Shown here one piece after another: positions 9,144 to 38,805 of a stretch of 64,000 nucleotides of DNA. Origin of the DNA: Dictyostelium discoideum (taxonomy: Eukaryota); contig CM000152.2 of NCBI GenBank assembly GCA_000004695.1, positions 384,001 through 448,000 on the forward strand, written 5' to 3'. Numbering within the stretch: the stretch's first letter is position 1; each line of letters begins with the position of its first letter. The position numbers were made by a program, and so were the translations under genes. Below the pieces are notes generated by a model. It saw nothing but the letters and a program-made list of their open reading frames with translations. It ran no database searches and was not told the origin of the DNA.

Positions 9144-11891
9144 ATGAAATTTAAAATAATAATAGTTTTAATATTATTTATAATATTTAATTATTATATT
9201 ATAAATATAAATGGATCATTTGATTTTAAATCAAAAAAGAATGTTGTTGGATATTATTCAAATAATTTAAAGAATAAAACATTAAAATATCATACATTAG
9301 GAGAATTTTGTCAACAAGGTAGTTATGATACAATTGTAATTGGGTCACTCTATTGGAATCAAAATATGACACAATTTTATTTTGAATGTCAAGATTATTA
9401 TTCATTAACTCAAGATAAAGAAAAAGAATTGGGTGTCGCAACAACACCAGTCCAACATTTAAAAGCATTTGATTTCTCAAAAAGAGGTGTTCAAAATGCA
9501 ATGAAAGAACAAATTTCTGACGAAGAAGAAGAAGAAGAAGTTGATATTCCAACAACAAAAACAAAAACAACAGCAACAAAAGCAAAAACAACAACAACAA
9601 CAACAACAATTAAAAAAATTGGTATTGAAAAGAATACATATCTTTCAAATAAATGTATTGATTTAAGAAATGATATAATTAAATGTCAAAATATTGGTGT
9701 TAAAATTTTAATTCAAGTTGGTAGTAAAGGTGGTATTGGTGAATTTGGGAATACATCAATTGCTACCAAAGAAATGGCTCAAAAATTGGCAGTTAAAATT
9801 TGGGATATGTTTTTATTTGGTGATGGTGGTAGAAAAGAGTATCAAGATAAATTAAAAGGTATAGATACAAAACCAAAGAATGATGGATCGTCAAGTGAAG
9901 AAATTGCATCATTTGGTAGTATTGAATCAATGGATGATCAAAGTGGTGATATTGAAGATATCGATCGTTTCAGTAGTGAAGTTAAAAAAGATGATTCCTC
10001 CTCAAACTCAACTGCATCACTTGGTGAATTGGATGATTATCAAGATGAACAATCTTATCAAGAGGAATATTCAAATGATGAAGATACAGATCCACCAATA
10101 CCAGATGATGAAGATTCTGAATATGTTGATCAAGAACAATATGAAGATGAAGAGGAGGACGATGATGAAGATGCAGTTGATGAAGATGGTAATCCAATTG
10201 TAAAGAAAAAGAAACAACCATCAACTTCAAAAGCACCAGAAAGAAAGAAGAAATTATTGGTTTTCCCACCACGTCCATTTGGTTATGGTGTATTTTTAGA
10301 TGGTGTTGATTTCTCACCAATGATTGGTAAAAGTGATAACTACTATCATTTGGCAATGGGTTTAGATAGATATAGAGTACCAAAGAAGGATTTATTCACC
10401 ATTTCCTCAACTGTGGATTGTTCGCTACTTCATAGTAAAAAAGAAAGTATGACCTCTTCTCCAACTGCTTTATTACGATTTAATTTCGATATTCTCACTT
10501 TAGATTTCGTTCATAATAAACAATGTGATTATTGGTCAAAAGTTAGTGATCAATGGATTATCGATTGGGCAAACTATACAAAAGACTATAAATTCAATCA
10601 AACTAAACTACTCTTAATGGCATCTTCAAATCCAAAGGATTCTGCTTTCTTCTCTCCAAAATTCTTTTTAATGGAATATACAAAATATTGCATTGATTTA
10701 CCAAATATGGCAGGTGTTTTTATCTCTGATGTTTTATCAGCTTCAAAGATTTATAATTCAACCACTAGATTGGATTTCTCTCAAGAAATATCAAAAGATG
10801 TTAAATCATTTAATCCATTAATTTATCATCATCCAGAAGGTACTCGTCCAGCTTGGACCTATGGTGGTGGTTCTAAACCTCCAACTTCACCTGCAACTAA
10901 ACCAATTCAAACTAAACCGCCAATTACCAAAGGTCCAATTATAACAATGTCTCCTAACAAAACTAAAACTTCAACAACTACCAAACCAGTACCAACAAAA
11001 ATTCCAATTATTGATAATAGTAATTCAACTTCAACAACTGTTAAAAAAGCAAATTCTTCACATTCAACTCCAACACCCACTATTAAATTAAGACCAACTC
11101 ATGCACCATTAAAAACACAATCACCTGAACCAAAAACTGAATCACCAACTCCCACTAGTACTCCAACACCTTCCTCAACAGTTGCAAAAACTACTCATGC
11201 ACCATTAAAAACTCAATCCCCAACACCAAAATTAATACCTATTACTAAAAAACCAATAACACCAACCAAAGCTCCAATAACTAAAGCTCCAATCCCAGTA
11301 ACTGAATCACCAACACCAGAGACTGAATCACCAATTAAATTGAGACCAACTCATAGACCACTAAAAACACAATCTCCAGAGACCGAATCAACAAAACCAA
11401 CTAAACCACCAACAACAACAACACCAAAACCAACTAAACCACCAACATCACCATCACCATCACCAAAACCAACCAAACCACCAACAACATCAGCACCACC
11501 TAAAAAAGAAACAACATCACCAATAAACTTAAGACCAACTCATAAACCACTAACACAACCACCAGTTGATGAATCTAAGACTAAAGTTTTGGACATTTCT
11601 GATGAAACAGAAACTAGAGTAATAACCATTCCAGATGATTCTGAAACACCGGCTAAATTAGAAATTCCAGACAATACAAAACCAGAAACACCGATTGAAT
11701 CCTCTGTTCCAATCAAATCTGTTGCTGCAGTTGATAAAACACCTGTTAAATCCGCTGCTCCAATCGAATCAGCTTCTCCAGTTGATGAAATACCTGTTGA
11801 ATCCGCTGCTCCAGTTGAAGAAACTAGAAGTAGAAGACATAAACCAATAAGTGCAACCGAATTTGATAAAAATTTCATCACAAATCAATAA
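9144..11891 (+). CDS. Secreted GH18 (class III chitinase/hevamine-like) domain protein with degenerate catalytic motif, an acidic insert, and a C-terminal Pro/Thr/Ser-rich mucin-like repeat tail
   Basis: N-terminal signal peptide MKFKIIIVLILFIIFNYYIININGS. GH18 class III blocks: VVGYYSN...TLGEFCQQGSYDTIVIGSLYW, KCQNIGVKILIQVGSKGGIGEFG, RPFGYGVFLDGVDFSPMIG and DYWSKVSDQWIIDWANY...LLLMASSNP. The canonical DGxDxDxE is replaced by DGVDFSPM (the Asp and the Glu are lost), so the protein is probably inactive, like narbonin/concanavalin B. The tail carries ~21-aa repeats (IKLRPTHAPLKTQSPEPKTESPTP / LRPTHRPLKTQSPETEST / NLRPTHKPL). Confidence 0.8.
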   Translation: MKFKIIIVLILFIIFNYYIININGSFDFKSKKNVVGYYSNNLKNKTLKYHTLGEFCQQGSYDTIVIGSLYWNQNMTQFYFECQDYYSLTQDKEKELGVATTPVQHLKAFDFSKRGVQNAMKEQISDEEEEEEVDIPTTKTKTTATKAKTTTTTTTIKKIGIEKNTYLSNKCIDLRNDIIKCQNIGVKILIQVGSKGGIGEFGNTSIATKEMAQKLAVKIWDMFLFGDGGRKEYQDKLKGIDTKPKNDGSSSEEIASFGSIESMDDQSGDIEDIDRFSSEVKKDDSSSNSTASLGELDDYQDEQSYQEEYSNDEDTDPPIPDDEDSEYVDQEQYEDEEEDDDEDAVDEDGNPIVKKKKQPSTSKAPERKKKLLVFPPRPFGYGVFLDGVDFSPMIGKSDNYYHLAMGLDRYRVPKKDLFTISSTVDCSLLHSKKESMTSSPTALLRFNFDILTLDFVHNKQCDYWSKVSDQWIIDWANYTKDYKFNQTKLLLMASSNPKDSAFFSPKFFLMEYTKYCIDLPNMAGVFISDVLSASKIYNSTTRLDFSQEISKDVKSFNPLIYHHPEGTRPAWTYGGGSKPPTSPATKPIQTKPPITKGPIITMSPNKTKTSTTTKPVPTKIPIIDNSNSTSTTVKKANSSHSTPTPTIKLRPTHAPLKTQSPEPKTESPTPTSTPTPSSTVAKTTHAPLKTQSPTPKLIPITKKPITPTKAPITKAPIPVTESPTPETESPIKLRPTHRPLKTQSPETESTKPTKPPTTTTPKPTKPPTSPSPSPKPTKPPTTSAPPKKETTSPINLRPTHKPLTQPPVDESKTKVLDISDETETRVITIPDDSETPAKLEIPDNTKPETPIESSVPIKSVAAVDKTPVKSAAPIESASPVDEIPVESAAPVEETRSRRHKPISATEFDKNFITNQ

Positions 11892-11987: not shown

Positions 11988-13691
<1,704 letters not shown>

Positions 13692-14104
13692 AATATTTTT
13701 TATTTACATATTAAATAAAATAAAAAATATTAAAAAAAAAAAAAAATTAAAAAAAAAAAAAAATTTTTTAAAAAAAAAATTAAAAAAAAAAAAAATTACA
13801 ATCATCAAATTTAATAAAATAATTCTTATTTTTTTAGGTGAACTTAAAATTTTGAAAATCTAAAAATCTTAAAAAAAAAAATCATCACTTTCAAAAAAAA
13901 TCATTTTTTAAAAAAAAAAAAACAATTAATTGTGAAAATAAACCAGATTTAAAAATTTAGAATTTTAAAAATAAAAAAAAATAAAAGAATATAAAAAAAA
14001 AAAAAAATTTAAAATTTTTTTTGTAAAAATATTTAAAATTTCTTATATTAATTTTTTAAATTTAAAAACAATCATAAAAATTTTATATATATATTTAAAT
14101 AAGG

Positions 14105-16297
14105 ATGCATGACACATCATTTACTGTTCATATAAAAGATGAAATTCCAACTTACATCTTTTTTATTGATACTTCAGGGTCAGTTGGAAAAATTGATTTT
14201 GAAATAGTAGTATTATGTTTAAAAAAAATAATTACTGAATTACCAGATAAAGTTAAAATTGAAATTATTGCCTTATCTTCAGATGCTATAATCGTTTTTA
14301 AAAAGCGGCAAAAATAAAATATTTGAAGATATTGAAAACAGTAAGTTCAAAATATCTTGGAATTAATATAAACTATATCAATAAATTTAAAATTAATTTT
14401 TTAACCATTATTTTTTAGATTTACTTTTTGATAGTGGTGCTACTAATTTGGTTGAAGCTTTAAAACTTGGAGAGGTAACCATTACTAATTTTTGTATGAA
14501 TCAAAAAAATTATTTTGTTCTCTTGACTGATGGTGTACCAACTGATGATCCTGAACCAATTATTCAAAAATTAATTTTAAAGGTAATATCAATTATTTAT
14601 ATTAATAAAAAATAATTTTATATATCCAAATTTTTTTTTTTTTTTTTTTTTTTTTTATTTGGGAGTTGATTTTATTGTATTAGCAATTGGAATGGATTCA
14701 GATAAAAAAAAAATTCAAAAATTGTTCCCAGGCCAACATCTATTCATGTTTGATACATTTTCTGGTCTTAGTAAATGTGTGCACACTTTGATTCCATCTC
14801 ATATTTCTATACCATTGACTACCGAAATTTATCCAAAATTTGAAAAAATTCAAAAGTCAAATGAAGCTTTTTATATAATCATTAAATTATCGTCTATCTA
14901 TCCAAAAGATAAATTTCTTGAAAATGAAATAACTTTTATTATCAAGGATAATAAATACCATAGTGGCTATGAAATAAAAGTTGGTCAAGCCACAAGTGAA
15001 GATTGTCCAAGTGAAACAACTGCAAAACTAATTTTTAAATGTCCACAAGAAATGTTACCAACCCATATTGATTTTGAAATCAAAGTAAGGGGATCCACAT
15101 TCCATGGTTATTTCGATTTAAAATACTCTTGGTTCACTGGTGATTTTATTACTAGAAGTCCAATTAATATTTGGGTTGATGGTATGGTTGGTCATGGAAA
15201 ATCAATTTATTATTTAATATTTTTTCATTAAATATTGATTTTGAAGAATTTTTACTTGTAGGAAACAATGCTTTTCATGTCACCACGGAACTTAGATTCC
15301 AAAGTGTTGCTCATATTTTAGCAACCAAAATCGTTAACCAACATGGTCTCTCTCCAAGACTTGTTGACTTTTACAAGAATGTTATCAACTCATTAAAAAT
15401 TGTGTTTGTCGATAAGCCGGGTATGGCAAAGAACCAAGGTAACCTTAGCTATACTCATGCAACAAAGGGCCAATACTCTAACAAACAACACCTAAAAGAT
15501 CTTATCACTGTTGGCGAAGCAAAGTCTTCTCTAGAATGTCATGCTATTCTTTTCGTGATTTCAATTACATTGGTTGATGATGATGTAGATTTTGAATTCA
15601 TAAAAGGTAAAATTCGAGAATCACTTCAAGCAAAAATCAAACCAATTGTTGTGGTCACTCACTGCGACGACTATTCACCAGAAGAAGCTGAAGCAATGAA
15701 AAAGAAACTTGAAGAAGAACTAAAGGTTGATAAAAAGAATTTCTTTTATTTAACTCCATATATTCAAGGTGAGAAACAACGTGATCCAACAAAAGATAGA
15801 ATTGTTTTTCAAATACTCAAATCTATTGTTGAAATTGCCAATAACACTCAAAATCAAAAAATATTAGAATCTTTGGCCAACGATATTAATAACAATAATA
15901 TAGATGAAATTTGTAACTCCTTTGTAAATACTTCTATTAGTTCAACTACCACTACCACTACCACTACTACTAATTCAAATACCTCAAGTGCTAATTCGAC
16001 TCCAAATGGAAATTCCTCTTCACCTTTATTATCCCCAAATGTTGTTGGTTCAGAATCTACTCTTTGGACAATTTGTGTAAAGAATGATTTAACAGATGCA
16101 AAAGTAAATGAAGCCAGATTTAGAGTTTATCCATCAATGACCTTAAAGATTTTGTTTCAAGAGTGTCACAAAAGTTTAAACTTTCTGTTGGTCTTTTTAG
16201 TTTTACAGATGAAAATGGTTATGATCTTTTATTCCCAGATGAATCCATTTTACTCAATGTTTTATCTGATAATATTACCCTTTCAATCTCTGATTAA
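14105..16297 (+). CDS. Multi-exon gene: vWA domain + AIG1/GIMAP-like GTPase domain + C-terminal PB1/ubiquitin-like domain; the gene model is uncertain and carries apparent frameshifts
   Basis: vWA part: the exon starting at 14105 has FFIDTSGSVG (a MIDAS DxSxS motif). The exon 14419..14582 has LLFDSGATNLVEALK...VLLTDGVPTDD and ends at a GTAATA donor. The track ORF 14659..15231 reads GVDFIVLAIGMDSDKKK... and ends with a GTPase P-loop, VDGMVGHGKS. GTPase part: 15262 onward has VFVDKPGMA (G3 DxxG), HAILFVISI, and VVVTHCDDY (G4), as in AIG1/GIMAP. C-terminal part: the last exon (~16125..16297, frame-shifted relative to the upstream part, entered via the acceptor ATTTAG) encodes INDLKDFVSRVSQKFKLSVGLFSFTDENGYDLLFPDESILLNVLSDNITLSISD*, which is PB1-like. 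Problems: there is a T5-run frame change inside exon 1 (AIIVFKK / SGKNKIFEDIEN). There is a T6-run frame change between the P-loop and the rest of the GTPase domain. The acceptor of the third exon is non-canonical. Confidence 0.5.
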
Positions 16298-16483
16298 AAT
16301 AAATTATAAATATAATAAAATAATTTTTTATGTATATATAATAATAATAACAATAATAATAATAATAATAATAAAAATAATAAAAATAAAAGCAATTAAC
16401 ATTAATTGACGCAATAAAATTTTAACTAATATTTATTAATTAAATTGAAATGTTTTTTTTTTTTTTTTTTTTTAATATTTAAC

Positions 16484-18497
16484 TTATTTAGTTGGTTGGA
16501 TATTTTTAACCATAGTAGCTAAATATTTGAAACGAGCAACACAATCTTTTTTAGATTTAGTACCGAGACGAGCTGCGATTTGATCCCAACGATCTTCAGC
16601 ATTTTTATCGACTTTTTGTAAAGCTTCTTCCAAGAGTTTTTGTTCTTCTGGTGTCCATTCAACAGAGGCAGTGGTAGTGGTAGTTTCTTTTTTAGCGGCT
16701 GGTTTGGCGGTGTCGACAGTTGATGGAGCGGTGGCGGTAGTGGTTGATTCAGTGCCATTTGAAGTGGTACCTACTGGATATTGACCGAGGTCAACTTTTG
16801 AACTGAGTTCAGATTTAATTTCCATATGACCAACTTTGGCTTTTAATTTATCATAATCGGAACCTGATGGAGCAGCTTCTGGTTTTGAGAAAGATTGTTG
16901 TTGAGTTGGTTGTGAGGTTTTAGCTTTGGCGATAACGTCTTTCAAAGAACGAGTTGGAATACAAGATGCAACGGATTCCCAACGTTTGGTAACACCTGGT
17001 GGGAACTTTTGGATGGCTTTAGCCAAGAGATGGAGTTCATCTTCAGTCCATGGTCTCTCTGGTTTAGCTTCTTTCTTATTGTTGAGTAATGCTTTTCTTT
17101 GCTCTTGATAGAGTCTGTCGGCCTCTCTTTGTTTCTCTTGAATTTCGTTCAATTGGACGAGGAAAACTGCTTTCTTATCGGTGACATTATTTTTGGTTTC
17201 CATTTCTTTGGTGAGCTCGCCTAATTGGAGGTTGTCCAAGGTGGCGATGACCAATTCAACATCTTCAATCTTTTGTGGTGGTTGGAATGATTTACAAATG
17301 TCACGGAATTGGATCTTACCCTTCTTTAATAATGCGGTTTGTTCAGCTTTGACACGTTTCTTTTCTTCGGCTTCGTCTTTCTTTCTCTTTTCTTCGGCTT
17401 CGACTCTTTCTTTTTCAGCTTTTTCAGCGGCTTCTTTTTCTTCTTGTGCCTTTCTCTTGGCTTCGTTTTTGGCATTCTTGTGTGCATTCTTTTTGTCGTC
17501 TTCTTCTTTTAATTTCTTTTGAATACGTGGATCTTTTTTGTAGGCGAGATTGGCGAGATCTTGAATACGTGCAGCTTCGATCTTTCTTTGTTTGACACGT
17601 TTCTTTTCATTCTCTCTCTCCATCCAACGTTTCTCTTCACGAGAGTCTGCATTATCTAAATCATGATCATCTTCAAATGTGAAATCTCTCCATGACTTGA
17701 ATGACCACCAAAAGTTATAGAATTTAACAACCTTATCATATGGAGTATCCATATCACCAAGTTTTGGTACTGGTTGAACGTTTGACCAACGAGAGTTACT
17801 ATCAAATACTGGTTCATAGATTTCGAAAAAGTCACCTTCTTCATCGGCTGTTGGAATATCATCATCAAATGGATCGGTTGAATCGTATGCTCTTCTCTTT
17901 TTAATATCACTTAAAATATTATTTGATTTAACTAATGCTTTAAATGCTTCATCATTACCACCTAAATCTTGATTTTTATCTGGATGAACAACTAAAATCA
18001 TTTTTTTATCTATTATTTAATAAATATTAATAAAAAAAAAAAAAAAATAAAAAAAAAAATCATATATTAATAAATTATTTTATTTTTTATTTTTTTATTT
18101 TTATTTTTAAAAACTTACATGCTAATTTAATATCATTATCGGTAGCTCTCCAACGTAAATGATCTAAACCCATGATTTTGTAATGATTAACATCTTTACC
18201 AGTTTTAGTCCACTCTTTATGATTATTTTTATAGTTTTCTTTTAATTCGTCAATGTTGTCATCATCATTTGAATCTTGAGATTTCTTGTCATCTGAAGTG
18301 GCACTAACCAAGCCAATGATTTCGACATCACCCTTTTTGACTTTACTCCAAACTAATTCAAACTCTTCACCAATTGGTTCGACTGAACGATTACATTCAC
18401 TCCAACCTAAAGATCCGTTGGTGTAATGAATTTCTCTTGAATTTTCATTTGACCATTCTTCTGCTGTTGGTGATGATAAAGATACAACAAGTGACAT
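16484..18497 (-). CDS. dnajc2: DnaJ homolog subfamily C member 2 (zuotin/MPP11-like): J domain + zuotin homology domain + two SANT domains, 2 exons: 18119..18497 and 16484..18009
   Basis: Exon 1 ends NHYKIMGLDHLRWRATDNDIKLA followed by a GTAAGT donor at 18118-18113, in phase 1. A 109-nt AT-rich intron ends at the TAG acceptor at 18012-18010. Exon 2 continues Y-KKMILVVHPDKNQ, completing the J-domain HPD motif. The Lys/Glu-rich charged region (zuotin homology) follows, then two SANT/Myb repeats (WTEDELHLLAKAIQKFPPGVTKRWESVASCI and WTPEEQKLLEEALQKVDKNAEDRWDQIAARLGTKSKKDCVARFKYL). Confidence 0.9.
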
Positions 18498-18795
18498 TAT
18501 TAAATATTATTTGTTTGTTTTAATGTGTCTTTATGTTTTAGAGAAAAAAAAAAAAAAAGAATAAAAAAAAAAAATATTTAAATATTTTTTTTTTAAAATT
18601 TTTTTTTTTTTTTTTTTAACCCGCACGCTCGCTCAGTTTCGACTTTTTGGAAAATTATTTTTAAAAAAAATTAAATAAAACTACAAAAAACCGAAAAAAA
18701 CGTTTTTTTAATTTTAGTTTTTTTTTTTTTTTTTTTTAGTTTTTTTTTTCAAATCTTAATTTCGGCTGATTAACTAAACATGGTAAATTAGTTTG

Positions 18796-18846
<51 letters not shown>

Positions 18847-32547: not shown

Positions 32548-35500
32548 ATGAAAGTTTTTTTATTAATATTATTGGTTTGTTTTATTTCTATTAATGTTGA
32601 TGCATTTCATAATTATAGAGCCAATTGTGATTACACCTCTTGTCCTAGAGAATTTAGTTGCCATGTAATCAATAGAAATATCACTGCTTGTTTACCAGAT
32701 AATGATATTTGTAGAAATTTTCCATGTCCACAGGGTAGTCATTGTTTCAATGGTGAAAGAGGTCCTGGTTGTTTTGATGATATCCATTATCCAAATTTAT
32801 GCTATGTAACCCATTGTTCATTGGATTATGATTGTAGAATGGTTAGAGGTGATCCAATATGTTTAAGATTTCAAAATGTTAATCCAACTAATACTCCAAC
32901 CCCCACCCCAGTTCATTGTACCACTTGTGCTGAACTAGCTTCTACTTGTCACTCTGATGGTTTAGTTTGTAGAACTATTGTTAATCCCAAGTGCCGTGGT
33001 AATTCAATAAAAGCTCTCGCCAAAACTAAAGCATGTTGTCCATATATTGCATTTTGTGATTCAAATTCAACCTCACACACAACTGGGGTACAAACAACAA
33101 CAGGAAGAAGTACGACTGGTGTACAATCAACAACTGGTAGGAGTACAACTGGTAGAAGTACAACTGGTAGAGGTACAACTGGTACAAGTACAACTGGTAC
33201 AAGTACAACTGGTACAAGCACAACTGGTAGAAGCACAACTGGTACAAGTACAACTGGTACAAGTACAACTGGTAGAAGTACAACTGGTACAAGTACAACT
33301 GGTACAAGTACAACTGGTACAAGTACAACTGGTACAAGCACAACTGGTACAAGTACAACTGGTACAAGCACAACTGGTACAAGTACAACTGGTACAAGTA
33401 CAACTGGTACAAGTACAACTGGTACAAGCACAACTGGTACAAGCACAACTGGTACAAGCACAACTGGTACAAGTACAACTGGTAGAAGCACAACTGGTAG
33501 AAGTACAACTGGTAGAAGTACAACTGGTAGAAGTACAACTGGTAGAAGTACAACTGGTAGAAGTACAACTGGTAGAAGTACAACTGGTAGAAGTACAACT
33601 GGTTCCGCTTCAACCACAGGAAGAGGTACAACTGGTTCTGCTTCAACCACAGGAAGAGGTACAACTGGTTCTGCTTCAACCACAGGAAGAGGTACAACTG
33701 GTGCTGCTTCAACCACAGGAAGAAGTACAACTGGTAGAGGTACAACTGGTAGAAGTACAACTGGTAGAAGTACAACTGGTTCCGCTTCAACCACAGGAAG
33801 AGGTACAACTGGTTCCGCTTCAACCACAGGAAGAAGTACAACTGGTTCCGCTTCAACCACTGGAAGAAGTACAACTGGTTCTGCTTCAACCACAGGAAGA
33901 GGTACAACTGGTTCTGCTTCAACTACAGGAAGAGGTACAACTGGTTCTGCTTCAACCACAGGAAGAGGTACAACTGGTTCTGCTTCAACCACAGGAAGAG
34001 GTACAACTGGTTCTGCTTCAACCACAGGAAGAAGTACAACTGGTGCTGCTTCAACCACAGGAAGAAGTACAACTGGTAGAGGCACAACTGGGGTACAATC
34101 AACAACTGGTGCTGCTTCAACCATAGGAAGAAGTACAACTGGTTCTGCTTCAACCACAGGAAGAGGTACAACTGGTGCTGCTTCAACCACAGGAAGAAGT
34201 ACAACTGGTGCTGCTTCAACCACAGGAAGAAGTACAACTGGTAGAGGTACAACTGGTGCTACTACTGCTAATTCAATAGGTGGTTTGACAACTGCTGGCG
34301 TCACAACAGTTGCTGGAGTAACTACTGCTACTGCCTCAACCGTTGCTGGAGTAACTACTGCCTCAACCGTTGCTGGTGTAACTACTAATTCAATAGGTGG
34401 TGTAACCACAGGAAGAGGTACAACTGGTGCTGCTTCAACTACAGGAAGAAGTACAACTGGTAGAGGTACAACTGGTGCTACTACTGCTAATTCAATAGGT
34501 GGTTTAACAACTGCTGGCGTCACAACAGTTGCTGGAGTAACTACTGCTACTGCCTCAACCGTTGCTGGAGTAACTACTGGTAGAGGTACAACTGGTTCTG
34601 CTTCAACCACAGGAAGAGGTACAACTGGTGCTGCCTCAACCGTTGCAGGAGTAACTACTGCTAATTCAATAGGTGGTATAACCACTGCTACTGCCTCAAC
34701 TGTTGCTGGAGTAACTACTGCTAATTCAATAGGTGGTTTGACTACTGCTGGCGTCACAACCGTTGCTGGAGTAACTACTGCCTCAACCGTTGCTGGAGTA
34801 ACTACTGCCTCAACCGTTGCTGGTGTAACTACTAATTCAATAGGTGGTGTAACCACAGGAAGAGGTACAACTGGTGCTACTACTGCTAATTCAATAGGTG
34901 GTGTAACCACAGGTAGAGGTACAACTGGTGCTACTACTGCTAATTCAATAGGTGGTTTAACAACTGCTGGCGTCACAACAGTTGCTGGAGTAACTACTGC
35001 TACTGCCTCAACCGTTGCTGGAGTAACTACTGCTACTGCCTCAACAGTTGCTGGAGTAACTACTGCTAATTCAATAGGTGGTTTGACAACTGCTGGCGTC
35101 ACAACAGTTGCTGGTGTCACTACTGTCAATTCAATAGGTGGTGCAACCACTGCCAATTCAATAGATGGTGCAACCACTGCCACTGCCTCAACCGTTGCAG
35201 GAGTAACTACTGCTAATTCAATAGGTGGTATAACCACTGCTACTGCCTCAACTGTTGCTGGAGTAACTACTGCTAATTCAATAGGTGGTGTAACCACAGG
35301 AAGAGGTACAACTGGTGCTGCTTCAACTACAGGAAGAAGTACAACTGGTAGAGGTACAACTGGTGCTACTACTGCTAATTCAATAGGTGGTTTAACAACT
35401 GCTGGCGTCACAACAGTTGCTGGAGTAACTACTGCTACTGCCTCAACCGTTGCTGGAGTAACTACTGCTAATTCAATAGGTGGTTTGACAACTGCTGGCG

Positions 35501-38500
35501 TCACAACAGTTGCTGGTGTCACTACTGTCAATTCAATAGGTGGTGCAACCACTGCCAATTCAATAGATGGTGCAACCACTGCCACTGCCTCAACCGTTGC
35601 AGGAGTAACTACTGCTAATTCAATAGGTGGTATAACCACTGCTACTGCCTCAACTGTTGCTGGAGTAACTACTGTCAATTCAATAGGTGTAACAACTGCT
35701 AGTTCAATAGGTGGTTTAACAACTGCTGGCGTCACAACCGTTGCTGGTGCCACTACTGCCAATTCAATAGGTGGTTTAACTACTGCTGGCATTACAACAG
35801 TTGCTGGTGCCACTACTGTCAATTCAATAGGTGGTTTGACAACTGCTGGCATCACAACAGTTGCTGGTGTCACTACTGCCAATTCAATAGATGGTGCAAC
35901 CACTGCCACTGCCTCTGCCTCAACCGTTGCAGGAGTAACTACTGCTAATTCAATAGGTGGTATAACCACTGCTACTGCCTCATCTGTTGCTGGAGTAACT
36001 ACTGCTTCAGTTGGAGGTTTGACAACTGCAGTTGCCTCTACAGTAGCTGGAGTAACTACTGCTGCTTCAATAGGTGGCGTAACCACTGCTACTGCCTCAA
36101 CCGTTGCTGGAGTAACTACTGCCTCAACCGTTGCTGGTGTAACTACTAATTCAATAGGTGGTGTAACCACTGCTACTGCCTCAACTGTTGCAGGTGTAAC
36201 TACTGCTGCTTCAATAGGTGGTTTAACTACTGCTGGTTTAACAACAGTTGCTGGATTTACCACTGCTGCCTCTGTTGGAGGTTTAACTACTGCTGGTGCT
36301 ACAACAGTTGCTGGTTCAACAACTTCCCCAGCATCAGTAGGTGACTTAACTACTGCTGGAGCAACAACAGTTGCTGGGGTTACCACTGCTGCTTCTGTTG
36401 GAGGTTTAACTACTGCTGGTGCTACAACAGTTGGAGGTTTAACTAATGCTAATTCAATAGGTGGTGTAACCACTGCTACTGCCTCAACGGTTGCTGGTGT
36501 AACTACTAATTCAATAGGTGGTGTAACCACTGCTACTGCCTCAACTGTTGCAGGTGTAACTACTGCTGCTTCAATAGGTGGTTTAACTACTGCTGGTTTA
36601 ACAACAGTTGCTGGAGTAACTACTGCTTCAGTTGGAGGTTTGACAACTGCAACTGCCTCTACAGTAGCTGGAGTAACTACTGCTGCTTCAATAGGAGGTT
36701 TAACTACTGCCGGCATTACAACAGTTGCTGGTTCAACAACAACAGTTGCTGGAGTCACCACTGCTGCTTCTGTTGGAGGTTTAACTACTGCTGGTGCTAC
36801 AACAGTTGCTGGAGTTACTACTGCTGCTTCTATTGGAGGTTTAACTACTGCTGGTGCTACAACAGTTGCCGGAGTTACTACTGCTGCTTCTATTGGAGGT
36901 TTAACTACTGCCAGTTTAACAACAGTTGCTGGTTCAACAACTTCCTCTTCATCAGTTGGTGGTTTAACTACTGCTGGAGCAACAACAGTTGCTGGAGTAA
37001 CTACTGCTGCTTCTGTTGGTGGTTTAACTACTGCTGGTATTACAACAGTTGCTGGAGTTACTACTGCTGCTTCTGTTGGAGGTTTAACTACTGCCGGTTT
37101 AACAACAGTTGCTGGTTCAACAACTTCCTCTTCATCAGTTGGTGGTTTAACTACTGCTGGAGCAACAACAGTTGCTGGAGTTACTACTGCTGGAGCAACA
37201 ACAGTTGCTGGAGTTACTACTGCTGCTTCTGTTGGAGGTTTAACTACTGCCGGTATTACAACAGTTTCTGGAGTAACTACTGCCAATTCAATAGGTGGCG
37301 CGAACACCGCTACCGCCGGTATAACTACTGCTGGAGCAACAACAGTTGCTGGAGTTACTACTGCTTCTGTTGGTGGTTTAACTACTGCCGGTATTACAAC
37401 AGTTGCTGGAGTAACTACTGCTGCTTCTGTTGGTGGTTTAACTACTGGTATTACAACAGTTGCTGGAGTTACTACTGCTGCTTCTGTTGGAGGTTTAACT
37501 ACTGCCGGTTTAACAACAGTTGCTGGTTCGACAACTTCATCTTCATCAATTGGAAGTTTGACTACGGCTGGTTTAACAACAGTTGCTGGAGTTACTACCG
37601 CTGCTTCTGTTGGAGGTTTGACAACTGCCGGTGTAACAACAGTTGCTGGCTCAACAACTTCCCCAGCATCAGTAGGTGGTTTAACTACTGCTACTGCCTC
37701 AACGGTCGCTGGAGTTACTACTGCCGCTTCAATAGGAGGTTTAACTACAGCTGGTATAACAACAATTGCTGGTTCAACAACTTCTGCTTCATCAGTGGGT
37801 GGTTTAACTACTGCTGGTTTAACAACAGTTGCTGGAGTTACTACTTCTGCTTCTGTTGGAGGTTTTACAACTGCCGGTATAACAACAGTTGCTGGTTCAA
37901 CAACTTCCCGAGCATCAGTAGGTGGTTTAACTACTGCTGGTGCTACAACAGTTGCTGGAGTTACTACTGCTGCTTCTGTAGGTGGTTTAACTACTTCTTC
38001 TTTGACAACAGTAGCTGGTGTCACTACTGGTACTGCTTCTGTTGGTGGTTTAACGACTGCTGGTGTAACTACCACCGCTGCTTCTGTTGGTGGTTTAACA
38101 ACTGCAGGTATTTCAACAATATCTGGTGTTACTACTGCCACAGCCTCAACGGTGGCAGGTATGACTACTGCCGCTGCTACATCAGGTGGTGTTTCAACTG
38201 CTACCGTATCATCAGGTGCCACAACTACTCAGGCATCAACACTATTTGGAATAACAACTGCTGCTTCTGTAGGCGCTTTAACAACAGCAGGTATGACAAC
38301 AGTCGCTGGTTTTACTACTGCTGCTTTTGTAGGTGGTTTAACAACTGCTGGTTTAACAACTGCTGGTGTAACTACTACCGCTGCTTCTGTTGGTGGTTTA
38401 ACAACTGCTGGTGTAACAACTACTGCTGCTTCTGTTGGTGGTTTAACAACTGCTGGTGTGACTACTACCGCTGCTTCTGTTGGTGGCTTAACAACTGCTG

Positions 38501-38805
38501 GTGTAACTACTACCGCTACTTCATCAGGTAGTGTTTCAACTGCTACCGTATCATCAGGTGCCACAACTACTCATGCTTCAACACTATTTGGAATAACAAC
38601 TGCTGCTTCAATAGGTGCTTTAACAACTGCAGGTATGACAACAGTAGCTGGTGTTACTACTGCTGCTTCTGTAGGTGGTTTAACAACTGCTGGTCTATCA
38701 ACAGTATCTGGTGTAACTACTTCTGCTTCTGTGGGTTCTTTAACAACTGCTGGTTCAACAACTCGTTCTGGTTCAACAACTCGTTCTGGTATAATAGGTG
38801 GTTAA
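32548..38805 (+). CDS. Giant secreted Cys-rich N-domain / Thr-Gly-rich tandem-repeat (mucin-like) protein, paralog B (2085 aa)
   Basis: Signal peptide MKVFLLILLVCFISINVDA. The N-domain NCDYTSCPREFSCHVINRNITACLPDNDICRNFPCPQGSHCFNGERGPGC...YPNLCYVTHC...MVRGDPICL...CTTCAELASTCHSDGLVCRTIVNPKC...ACCPYIAFCDSNSTS is ~60% identical to paralog A. About 1,900 aa of nested tandem repeats follow: TTG(T/R)S (15-nt units), GSASTTGRGTT (33-nt units) and ANSIGGLTTAGVTTVAGVTT (60-nt units). It is a single uninterrupted ORF. Confidence 0.75.
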   Translation: MKVFLLILLVCFISINVDAFHNYRANCDYTSCPREFSCHVINRNITACLPDNDICRNFPCPQGSHCFNGERGPGCFDDIHYPNLCYVTHCSLDYDCRMVRGDPICLRFQNVNPTNTPTPTPVHCTTCAELASTCHSDGLVCRTIVNPKCRGNSIKALAKTKACCPYIAFCDSNSTSHTTGVQTTTGRSTTGVQSTTGRSTTGRSTTGRGTTGTSTTGTSTTGTSTTGRSTTGTSTTGTSTTGRSTTGTSTTGTSTTGTSTTGTSTTGTSTTGTSTTGTSTTGTSTTGTSTTGTSTTGTSTTGTSTTGTSTTGRSTTGRSTTGRSTTGRSTTGRSTTGRSTTGRSTTGRSTTGSASTTGRGTTGSASTTGRGTTGSASTTGRGTTGAASTTGRSTTGRGTTGRSTTGRSTTGSASTTGRGTTGSASTTGRSTTGSASTTGRSTTGSASTTGRGTTGSASTTGRGTTGSASTTGRGTTGSASTTGRGTTGSASTTGRSTTGAASTTGRSTTGRGTTGVQSTTGAASTIGRSTTGSASTTGRGTTGAASTTGRSTTGAASTTGRSTTGRGTTGATTANSIGGLTTAGVTTVAGVTTATASTVAGVTTASTVAGVTTNSIGGVTTGRGTTGAASTTGRSTTGRGTTGATTANSIGGLTTAGVTTVAGVTTATASTVAGVTTGRGTTGSASTTGRGTTGAASTVAGVTTANSIGGITTATASTVAGVTTANSIGGLTTAGVTTVAGVTTASTVAGVTTASTVAGVTTNSIGGVTTGRGTTGATTANSIGGVTTGRGTTGATTANSIGGLTTAGVTTVAGVTTATASTVAGVTTATASTVAGVTTANSIGGLTTAGVTTVAGVTTVNSIGGATTANSIDGATTATASTVAGVTTANSIGGITTATASTVAGVTTANSIGGVTTGRGTTGAASTTGRSTTGRGTTGATTANSIGGLTTAGVTTVAGVTTATASTVAGVTTANSIGGLTTAGVTTVAGVTTVNSIGGATTANSIDGATTATASTVAGVTTANSIGGITTATASTVAGVTTVNSIGVTTASSIGGLTTAGVTTVAGATTANSIGGLTTAGITTVAGATTVNSIGGLTTAGITTVAGVTTANSIDGATTATASASTVAGVTTANSIGGITTATASSVAGVTTASVGGLTTAVASTVAGVTTAASIGGVTTATASTVAGVTTASTVAGVTTNSIGGVTTATASTVAGVTTAASIGGLTTAGLTTVAGFTTAASVGGLTTAGATTVAGSTTSPASVGDLTTAGATTVAGVTTAASVGGLTTAGATTVGGLTNANSIGGVTTATASTVAGVTTNSIGGVTTATASTVAGVTTAASIGGLTTAGLTTVAGVTTASVGGLTTATASTVAGVTTAASIGGLTTAGITTVAGSTTTVAGVTTAASVGGLTTAGATTVAGVTTAASIGGLTTAGATTVAGVTTAASIGGLTTASLTTVAGSTTSSSSVGGLTTAGATTVAGVTTAASVGGLTTAGITTVAGVTTAASVGGLTTAGLTTVAGSTTSSSSVGGLTTAGATTVAGVTTAGATTVAGVTTAASVGGLTTAGITTVSGVTTANSIGGANTATAGITTAGATTVAGVTTASVGGLTTAGITTVAGVTTAASVGGLTTGITTVAGVTTAASVGGLTTAGLTTVAGSTTSSSSIGSLTTAGLTTVAGVTTAASVGGLTTAGVTTVAGSTTSPASVGGLTTATASTVAGVTTAASIGGLTTAGITTIAGSTTSASSVGGLTTAGLTTVAGVTTSASVGGFTTAGITTVAGSTTSRASVGGLTTAGATTVAGVTTAASVGGLTTSSLTTVAGVTTGTASVGGLTTAGVTTTAASVGGLTTAGISTISGVTTATASTVAGMTTAAATSGGVSTATVSSGATTTQASTLFGITTAASVGALTTAGMTTVAGFTTAAFVGGLTTAGLTTAGVTTTAASVGGLTTAGVTTTAASVGGLTTAGVTTTAASVGGLTTAGVTTTATSSGSVSTATVSSGATTTHASTLFGITTAASIGALTTAGMTTVAGVTTAASVGGLTTAGLSTVSGVTTSASVGSLTTAGSTTRSGSTTRSGIIGG
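33090..38790. repeat. ~5.7 kb coding tandem-repeat array (15-, 33- and 60-nt unit families, near-identical copies) inside the 32548..38805 gene
   Basis: Dozens of consecutive copies of units such as actggtacaagtaca or ggtacaagtacaactggtagaagtacaact. The long antisense track ORFs over this region (32949..38222, 33026..33922, 33047..34126, 33923..34252, 38229..38564) are mirror artefacts of the repeat. Confidence 0.9.

Follow-up and report, generated by a model that had tools for sequence, protein, structure and literature searches.

A locus in Dictyostelium discoideum that is annotated as two hypothetical genes, DDB_G0278175 and DDB_G0278177, is very probably a single gene that was recently inactivated: a unitary pseudogene in the AX4/NC4-type lineage. 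The locus lies within a stretch of 64,000 nucleotides (nt) from the AX4 reference (assembly GCA_000004695.1, contig CM000152.2, positions 384,001 to 448,000 of the forward strand), which we call the window; all coordinates are positions in the window. The ancestral coding region spans 14105..16297 on the forward strand (+), from the start codon (ATG at 14105) to the stop codon (TAA at 16295-16297), and joins a von Willebrand factor A domain (vWA), a septin-like GTPase domain, and a ubiquitin-like domain (UBL). Close relatives still have the three-exon gene intact, and there it encodes a protein of about 680 amino acids that is presumably cytosolic. The AX4 gene would have been lost through four independent mutations, each of which wrecks the reading frame or a splice site: deletions of 5, 10, and 1 base pairs (bp) and the loss of a 3' splice acceptor.

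The ancestral gene can be seen in relatives of AX4. A homology search returned intact full-length orthologs of 680 and 691 amino acids (from two assemblies of D. cf. discoideum) and 704 amino acids (D. dimigraforme), as well as Logan contigs that come from a very close relative and carry an open reading frame (ORF) of 536 amino acids. For comparison at the DNA level, we made a three-way alignment of the window with two intact sequences: L001 (a Logan genomic contig from the very close relative) and L004. In another Logan contig, L005 (2161 nt, from run SRR24091728), the frame stays open for a protein of 681 amino acids (P0169). L005 matches L001, the genomic contig, in three blocks at 100% identity, which identifies it as a transcript spliced from the intact allele. 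This transcript has exactly two introns, and neither is at the P-loop or ahead of the C-terminal domain. Mapping L005 gives this structure for the gene:

14105..14340 (+): exon 1, the N-terminal half of the vWA, with the DTSGS motif of the metal ion-dependent adhesion site (MIDAS) at 14168-14182; exon 1 of L005 maps to 14060-14340.
14341..14418 (+): intron 1, 78 nt, GT..AG, genuine and intact (L005 compared with L001 and the window).
14419..14582 (+): exon 2, vWA, including LTDG at 14523-14534; ends in phase 0.
14583..14661 (+): ancestral intron 2, donor intact and acceptor lost (L005 mapping and alignment with relatives).
14662..16297 and beyond (+): exon 3, the end of the vWA, a beta-sandwich, the GTPase, a linker, and the UBL.
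Within exon 3 (+), with limits transferred from an AlphaFold2 model of the intact ortholog P0001: beta-sandwich, about 14809-15124; GTPase, about 15154-15894; Thr/Ser/Asn-rich linker, about 15927-16050; UBL, about 16062-16294.

An earlier note on this DNA, which was made from the sequence alone, had read the vWA, the GTPase, and the C-terminal tail as one continuous protein. The intact orthologs of 680-704 amino acids and the spliced transcript bear this out, and the motifs that the note quoted (DTSGS, LTDG, GMVGHGKS, VDKPG, THCDD, and the C-terminal peptide) are all where it placed them.

Compared to both intact relatives, the window's copy of the gene has four lesions. (Here and below, a slash within a short sequence marks a splice junction.)

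14293..14299 (+): lesion 1, the loss of 5 bp after 14295 (both intact relatives have TTCAA), which shifts the frame and leads to a stop codon at 14315-14317 (DNA alignment).
14660-14661 (+): lesion 2, the acceptor of intron 2, changed from AG to TG (the relatives have TAG/GGAGTT and AAG/AGAGTT).
After 15203 (+): lesion 3, a 10-bp deletion right behind the GHGKS codons (the relatives have AACTATTTTA and AAGTATTTTA; DNA alignment).
16140..16145 (+): lesion 4, a 1-bp deletion after 16142 (ACC-TTAAAG versus ACCTTTAAAG), which puts the UBL out of frame (DNA alignment).

Lesion 1 abuts a run of T's but is not a one-base homopolymer error. As for lesion 2, the remaining acceptors for intron 2 (14665 and 14683) are out of frame, because exon 2 ends in phase 0 and each of them would need one carried-over base. 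Lesion 3 removes Thr-Ile-Leu from the ancestral peptide (GHGK[ST]-[ST]-I-L-NLLFNIFSLN) and shifts the frame, which leads to a stop codon at 15229-15231. The surviving pieces of the gene are scattered across frames: the ATG ORF is in frame 2, exon 2 is in frame 0, the P-loop ORF is in frame 1, the body of the GTPase is in frame 0, and the C-terminal peptide FKLSVGLFSFTDENGYDLLFPDESILLNVLSDN (the segment 16124-16294) is in frame 2. Between the body of the GTPase and the C-terminal peptide, there are only GT..AG intervals of 19-20 nt. What had looked like a separate "PB1 exon" is exon 3 itself in a shifted frame.

In the AX4 copy, then, translation would meet its first premature stop at 14315; the core strand of the vWA with which exon 3 opens has no in-frame junction; the G1 motif of the GTPase is severed from G2-G4 by the 10-bp deletion; and the UBL is out of frame. 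This shows that the coding capacity for the ancestral protein is gone from the AX4 copy. AX4 also differs from both intact relatives at about 15944-15965, where the Thr-run of the disordered linker has an in-frame expansion of 6 bp (ACTACC). This is ordinary repeat-length variation and not a lesion.

The earlier note had proposed two frame defects, near 14290 and 15220, each to be corrected by +1 in a run of T's. Frame breaks do occur near 14290 and at 15205-15230, and the +1 corrections work numerically, but the mutations are deletions of 5 and 10 bp, and the T6 run that had been blamed for the second one lies about 15 nt downstream of it. Nor were two defects enough. The loss of the acceptor was missed (although that junction was flagged for checking), and lesion 4 was hidden in what was taken for a last exon.

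Could the AX4 gene be truly intact, with the lesions being errors of sequencing or assembly? The genome is extremely AT-rich and homopolymer-rich, and lesions 1 and 4 touch T-runs. Nevertheless, errors of this kind are highly improbable. First, what the two larger deletions removed (5 and 10 bp) is mixed sequence, and another lesion is a base substitution at a splice site. Second, in another chromosome-scale assembly of D. discoideum (GCA_054883475.1), the locus (L006) matches 12192-18798 of the window with zero mismatches and a single 1-base gap. That gap, the sole difference over 6.6 kb, is in a poly-T tract near 18617, outside of the gene, where the window is one T longer. So the second assembly repeats all four disabling mutations, yet it differs at a genuine homopolymer, which is the reverse of the pattern expected from miscalls. 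Given the size of the deletions and the identity of the second assembly at this locus, we consider homopolymer miscalls to be refuted. Third, the neighboring genes are intact, and the damaged copy also has an excess of nonsynonymous changes (see below). We also rejected programmed frameshifting or editing, because the four lesions are unrelated and include a splice-site substitution, and because the intact relatives need no recoding.

We then considered whether the annotated gene models could be correct. In AX4, the locus is split into DDB_G0278175 (84 amino acids, UniProt Q54YM1) and DDB_G0278177 (501 amino acids, UniProt Q54YM0). Our repaired conceptual translation retrieves DDB_G0278177 (P0004), and P0004 is identical to the window's sequence wherever its exons overlap, but the annotated protein lacks the vWA and the P-loop. 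The annotation of GCA_054883475.1 likewise splits the locus, into ACTFIT_009921 (127 amino acids) and ACTFIT_009922 (506 amino acids). These models rely on two introns:

15182..15261 (+): annotated intron, not genuine; a fortuitous GT..AG pair that lets the AX4 model skip lesion 3 and deletes the P-loop (P0004 reads WVDG/NNAFHV; the intact-allele transcript is colinear here).
16104..16123 (+): annotated intron of 20 nt, not genuine; it restores the frame ahead of lesion 4 in both the AX4 and the ACTFIT models (P0004 and P0168 read TDAK/SLSINDL; the intact-allele transcript is colinear here).

If these models were right, then DDB_G0278175 and DDB_G0278177 might be shortened but functional products, or alternative splicing might give isoforms with and without the P-loop, as the earlier note had proposed. 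The note was correct that a canonical GT..AG pair at 15182..15261 would splice out the P-loop, and the AX4 annotation uses exactly this pair. Also, two annotation pipelines produced coding models, and a long ORF survives downstream of Met 14692. But we have several reasons to view functional products of this kind as quite improbable. The intact-allele transcript has no intron at either site, and the second "intron" is just 20 nt, while the genuine introns are 78-79 nt. The two pipelines bridge lesion 3 differently (WVDG/NNAFHV versus WVD/EFLLVG), which implies that these splices reflect model-fitting and not biology. Splicing at 15182..15261 would remove strand 1, the P-loop, and helix 1, including the G1 residues that are invariant in the family, so nucleotide binding would be lost. 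An isoform with the P-loop is impossible because it is frameshifted by the 10-bp deletion, and two further lesions lie elsewhere in the gene. The nonsynonymous excess on the AX4 branch is also unfavorable. In short, the segment with the P-loop is exonic in the intact gene and AX4 has no full-length frame, which rules against the isoforms. Because the transcript has only two introns, we interpret the "P-loop intron" and the "last exon" as annotation workarounds: the annotators papered over the damage by splitting one locus into two genes and by inventing introns.

If the gene was inactivated recently, then it might show relaxed constraint in AX4. We estimated the ratio of nonsynonymous to synonymous substitution rates (dN/dS) with the Nei-Gojobori method and polarized the changes using L004 as the outgroup. 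Between the intact alleles L005 and L004, dN/dS is 0.27 (dS = 0.25), which indicates purifying selection. Between the repaired AX4 sequence and L005, its nearest intact allele, dN/dS is 0.64 (dS = 0.017). On the AX4 branch, 12 changes are nonsynonymous and 2 are synonymous, compared to 5:2 on the L005 branch and 94:86 on the long branch (AX4 branch versus long branch, Fisher p = 0.023, with small counts). The AX4-specific replacements include changes at otherwise conserved positions, such as F57L, R62I, K100V (two changes in one codon), and G520V. Although small, the counts for the AX4 branch agree with a recent loss of constraint.

The lesions could be confined to the NC4/AX laboratory lineage, as a segregating null allele, with wild D. 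discoideum retaining an intact gene and the Logan contigs representing wild D. discoideum. We see this as a real possibility but not the favored one, and it would refine the scope of the pseudogene reading rather than contradict it. The intact allele (L001-L003 and L005) is indeed very close to AX4 (dS = 0.017, and intron 1 is identical at 78/78 positions), and the AX4 branch is short, with just 2 synonymous changes, which suggests that the loss is recent. On the other hand, a dS of 0.017 may exceed the divergence within a species. Also, no intact NCBI-annotated protein from D. discoideum clusters with the intact allele, and look-ups via the neighboring genes for proteins of 552 and 915 amino acids gave only GCA_054883475.1, which has the lesions.

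Several caveats weigh against our interpretation of this locus as a pseudogene with a functional ancestor. It is not established that GCA_054883475.1 is independent of the AX4 reference, or that it represents a separate isolate, as their sole difference at this locus is the length of a homopolymer. The test for relaxed constraint rests on small counts. ORFs of 179 amino acids (from Met 14692) and 335 amino acids (15402-16409, GTG start) survive in AX4, and a residual product is conceivable. For the AX4 allele, look-ups of the ORFs that depend on the lesions (14692-15231 with an ATG or TTG start; 14105-14317; and the frame-0 ORF of 328 amino acids with an ATG start that ends at 16409) gave no record, which is uninformative, as the choice of start codon or the ends of contigs may explain it. 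Finally, the functional mechanism that we propose below is drawn from domain content only.

We still conclude that the locus is very probably a pseudogene, and this has practical consequences. DDB_G0278175 and DDB_G0278177 are the wreck of one gene, and a single entry marked as a pseudogene should replace them. Their models include invented introns, one of which deletes the P-loop. As they stand, these entries mislead work on orthology, domains, and knockouts. AX4 is a natural null, so functional work will require a relative with an intact allele or else the AX4 paralog DDB_G0269482.

We also examined the architecture of the intact protein. It has five parts: a vWA with a complete MIDAS, an immunoglobulin (Ig)-like beta-sandwich, a septin-like GTPase of the TRAFAC class, a disordered linker that is rich in Thr, Ser, and Asn, and a C-terminal UBL. 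These are apparent in the AlphaFold2 model of P0001, which was built from a 24-sequence alignment of the family (mean predicted local distance difference test (pLDDT) of 84.4):

Residues 1-178: vWA.
Residues 185-290: all-beta sandwich.
Residues 300-550: P-loop alpha/beta domain.
Residues 561-601: disordered.
Residues 605-680: beta-beta-alpha-beta-beta domain.

The presence of a vWA with a MIDAS motif, which had been noticed from the sequence, is well supported. Pfam's VWA model (PF00092) gives 49.2 bits for the repaired AX4 translation and 70.8 bits for P0001, compared to a cut-off of 23.8, and this is the only Pfam domain above threshold in either protein. The MIDAS is complete: exon 1 contributes DTSGS, and exon 2 contributes both the Thr of G-A-T-N and LTDG. 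These columns are conserved in most members of the family. The model of this region has the alpha/beta, Rossmann-like fold of vWA domains (pLDDT of about 90 over residues 1-178), and Foldseek matched it to VWF A1/A2/A3, integrin I-domains, and TRAP with template modeling (TM) scores of 0.7-0.77 (target-normalized). (The fold search with the full-length model was dominated by vWA matches, so we used a separate model for the G-domain.) We did not see a signal peptide or a transmembrane helix in either the sequence or the model of the intact protein, so it is presumably cytosolic.

The GTPase domain has these motifs:

15181..15204 (+): G1 or P-loop, GMVGHGKS.
15276..15287 (+): G2 or switch I, H-V-T-T; the His and Thr are invariant or nearly so across the family.
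15408..15422 (+): G3, V-D-K-P-G (DxxG).
15657..15671 (+): G4-like, T-H-C-D-D ([TN]xxD); the Asp is nearly invariant.

In the ancestral protein, the motifs read GxxGxGK[ST] for G1, H-x-T in switch I, DxxG for G3, and [TN]xxD for G4. They occur in the order expected for a TRAFAC GTPase (GxxxxGK[ST], the Thr of switch I, DxxG, and an [NT]KxD-like motif), and G1, the Thr of G2, the Gly of G3, and the Asp of G4 are invariant or at least 90% conserved across 24 members of the family. The fold of the domain is also that of a GTPase.

What kind of GTPase is it? The earlier note had placed it in the AIG1/GIMAP/Toc-like class. This was close, in that these proteins belong to the same wider septin-like or "paraseptin" group, but septin G-domains match better. 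The best match of the family profile is to SEPT3 (E = 8.8e-10, profile positions 4-204), followed by SEPT9, SEPT12, and Cdc10/12, while GIMAP4 matches the profile at the P-loop alone (E = 0.005). Pfam's Septin model (PF00735) has sub-threshold matches in 10 of the 24 family members (best E = 2.3e-6), with P0001 and P0008 at 15.9-20.3 bits versus a gathering score of 26.2. In contrast, the AIG1 hidden Markov model (PF04548) did not match the AX4 translation or P0001 (with E cut-offs of 0.1-1), and it has weak matches in 5 of the 24, all distant members (best E = 3.9e-5). A sequence resembling the "conserved box" of AIG1 is present (ECHAILFVISI, a His-Ala and a hydrophobic strand), but it also aligns with RVHCCLYFI of septins, so it does not discriminate between them.

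Despite this similarity, the protein is not a septin, as it lacks both the septin unique element and the polybasic region. The matches stop at about position 217 of 280 in the Pfam model and about residue 199 of 287 in SEPT3, and after G4 and alpha-4, the AlphaFold2 model has a single long helix, not the beta-meander of the septin unique element. The segment before G1 (...WFTGDFITRSPINIWVDG), which directly follows the beta-sandwich, is not basic, whereas septins have a polybasic stretch there (PMC11238149). The domain is best called a septin-like ("paraseptin"-type) TRAFAC GTPase.

The C-terminal domain had been described as a PB1 or ubiquitin-like fold, encoded by a last exon. It is a beta-grasp domain, but neither PB1 nor the separate exon held up (the transcript is colinear through this region). 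When compared to the PDB, the family profile for the C-terminal domain matches ISG15 (E = 5e-6), the UBLs of ubiquilin (1e-5), and ubiquitin (about 1e-3). Using hhalign, the match to ubiquitin has a probability of 75% (E = 2.4e-5), versus 0.1% (E = 0.49) for the PB1 domain of p62. (We verified the sequence of the p62 query against PDB entries.) Pfam's PB1 model (PF00564) gives 14.3 bits, versus a gathering score of 23.6 (E = 0.039), with faint matches in 4 of 13 family members; Pfam's ubiquitin and TUG-UBL1 models also have matches, all below threshold. By eye, FSFTDENGYDLLFPDESIL resembles an OPCA motif, but given the hhalign results, we rejected PB1. The modeled elements are strands at 605-611 and 620-625, a helix at 631-642, and strands at 649-651 and 675-679 (pLDDT 82-91). 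The domain ends in ...LSISD, and because it lacks a Gly-Gly end, it is not conjugatable. Overall, the tail is an integral ubiquitin-like beta-grasp domain, and PB1, which shares this fold class, is unsupported.

To find more distant relatives, an exhaustive HMMER search with P0001 was needed: it gave about 200 matches, and for roughly 30 of the representatives among them, a single alignment takes in the vWA, the middle, and the NTPase regions. (A profile search of a word-indexed database found only close orthologs and unrelated bacterial vWA proteins.) The MIDAS and the G motifs are conserved across the family. The family spans Amoebozoa (dictyostelids, Nematostelium, and Pelomyxa) and at least one heterolobosean, and its members are annotated as "hypothetical" or "VWFA domain-containing":

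Named members: the D. discoideum paralog DDB_G0269482, and proteins from D. purpureum, Heterostelium album, Acytostelium subglobosum, Tieghemostelium lacteum, Synstelium polycarpum, Nematostelium gracile, Pelomyxa schiedti, and the heterolobosean Pharyngomonas kirbyi.

For one distant member from Pelomyxa schiedti, P0018 (1698 amino acids), the alignment covers the vWA, the middle, and the NTPase regions, about 490 residues in all. P0018 also contains a second vWA and a protein-kinase domain, so the vWA-GTPase module is reused in larger signaling proteins.

We found no mention of DDB_G0278175 or DDB_G0278177 in the literature that we searched, nor any description of an architecture with a vWA, a septin-like GTPase, and a UBL, which agrees with the earlier note's impression that the combination was undescribed. 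Septins are reported to be absent from Amoebozoa and Excavata (PMC11238149), so the septin-like G-domain of this family is of some evolutionary interest. The domains themselves are known; what is new, relative to the searched literature, is their arrangement, with a G-domain that is nearest to septins in lineages that are said to lack them. Tentatively, the intact orthologs may represent an undescribed eukaryotic family (vWA with MIDAS, beta-sandwich, septin-superfamily GTPase, and UBL) of Amoebozoa and at least one heterolobosean. It could be a surviving "paraseptin" lineage that assembles in a GTP-dependent manner on a MIDAS-bound ligand, with lineage-specific turnover, including the recent loss in AX4, reminiscent of that seen in immunity-type GTPases (for example, GIMAP and IRG). 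We see this as a modest but concrete lead for the evolution of septin-like GTPases, and as a correction to the annotation, not as a new mechanism.

In vWA domains and integrin I-domains, the metal ion at the MIDAS binds an acidic side chain of the ligand. By analogy, the MIDAS face of the intact protein's vWA would use a metal ion to engage an acidic residue on a protein ligand. The septin-like G-domain might hydrolyze GTP and dimerize or oligomerize via its G-interface in a nucleotide-dependent manner, as septins and GIMAP/Toc proteins do, and the integral UBL could dock the complex on machinery that binds ubiquitin or UBLs. Judging from its domain content, the intact protein might then be a GTP-gated adaptor, although we consider this specific mechanism less likely than not. 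In AX4, such a mechanism cannot operate.

The composition of the window points to a dictyostelid: outside of one block, the GC content is 16-33%; the intergenic DNA is poly-A/T; and introns are short, AT-rich, and GT..AG. We detected no tRNAs or Rfam families in the whole 64-kb window. The genes next to the disrupted locus have long intact ORFs:

9144-11891 (+): upstream, an intact single-exon gene, 915 amino acids.
11988-13646 (-): upstream, an intact single-exon gene, 552 amino acids.
16484-18497 (-): directly downstream, a DnaJ/zuotin-like gene (ZUO1 ZHD and Myb), 634 amino acids, with a single intron of 109 nt at about 18010-18118.
32548-38805 (+): farther away, an ORF of 2085 amino acids in the window's only GC-rich block (GC 0.46).

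The two upstream genes have no Pfam match on record, and their position is conserved in related assemblies. The zuotin-like gene is undamaged, and its synteny with the locus in D. cf. discoideum is preserved, so the damage is specific to the vWA-GTPase gene. In the 2085-amino-acid ORF, the start resembles a signal peptide and the head is rich in Cys; then come about 1900 amino acids of Thr/Gly/Ala/Ser repeats (first TTGRS/TTGTS units and then VAGVTTA-SIGGLTTAG units). From its sequence, the product looks like a mucin-like protein that is secreted or on the surface. The repeat also keeps an antisense ORF of 1757 amino acids open (32949-38222).

Finally, we compared the intact protein to known systems. 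The top structural match to the vWA and the sandwich together is the ectodomain of anthrax toxin receptor 2 (CMG2 or ANTXR2; Foldseek E = 1e-12, 307 columns, target-normalized TM score of 0.57). Both proteins have a MIDAS-type vWA followed by a beta-sandwich (Ig-like in ANTXR2), but ANTXR2, an extracellular receptor, has both a signal peptide and a transmembrane helix, whereas the Dictyostelium protein has neither and runs on into a GTPase. With integral UBLs (ubiquilin, ISG15, and TUG-UBL1), the C-terminal domain shares profile similarity and the beta-beta-alpha-beta-beta order. Unlike in septins (PF00735; human SEPT3 and SEPT9, yeast Cdc10 and Cdc12), the G-domain sits between a vWA with its beta-sandwich and a UBL. 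Among the "paraseptin" GTPases (AIG1/GIMAP and Toc34/159, PF04548), GIMAPs lack both the vWA and the UBL. A GTPase and a vWA do occur together in the cpRAS-VWA proteins, which are also found in Dictyostelium (Elias & Novotny 2008, PMC2430557); this was the only such pairing that our literature search turned up. The two families are alike in that both are cytosolic, of uncharacterized function, and patchily distributed, the cpRAS-VWA proteins among protists and metazoans. However, cpRAS-VWA proteins have an N-terminal circularly permuted Ras-like domain (G3-G4-G5-G1-G2), then a zinc finger, and a C-terminal vWA of the Sec23/24-trunk type, whereas the Dictyostelium protein has an N-terminal vWA, a septin-like GTPase that is not permuted, and a terminal UBL.

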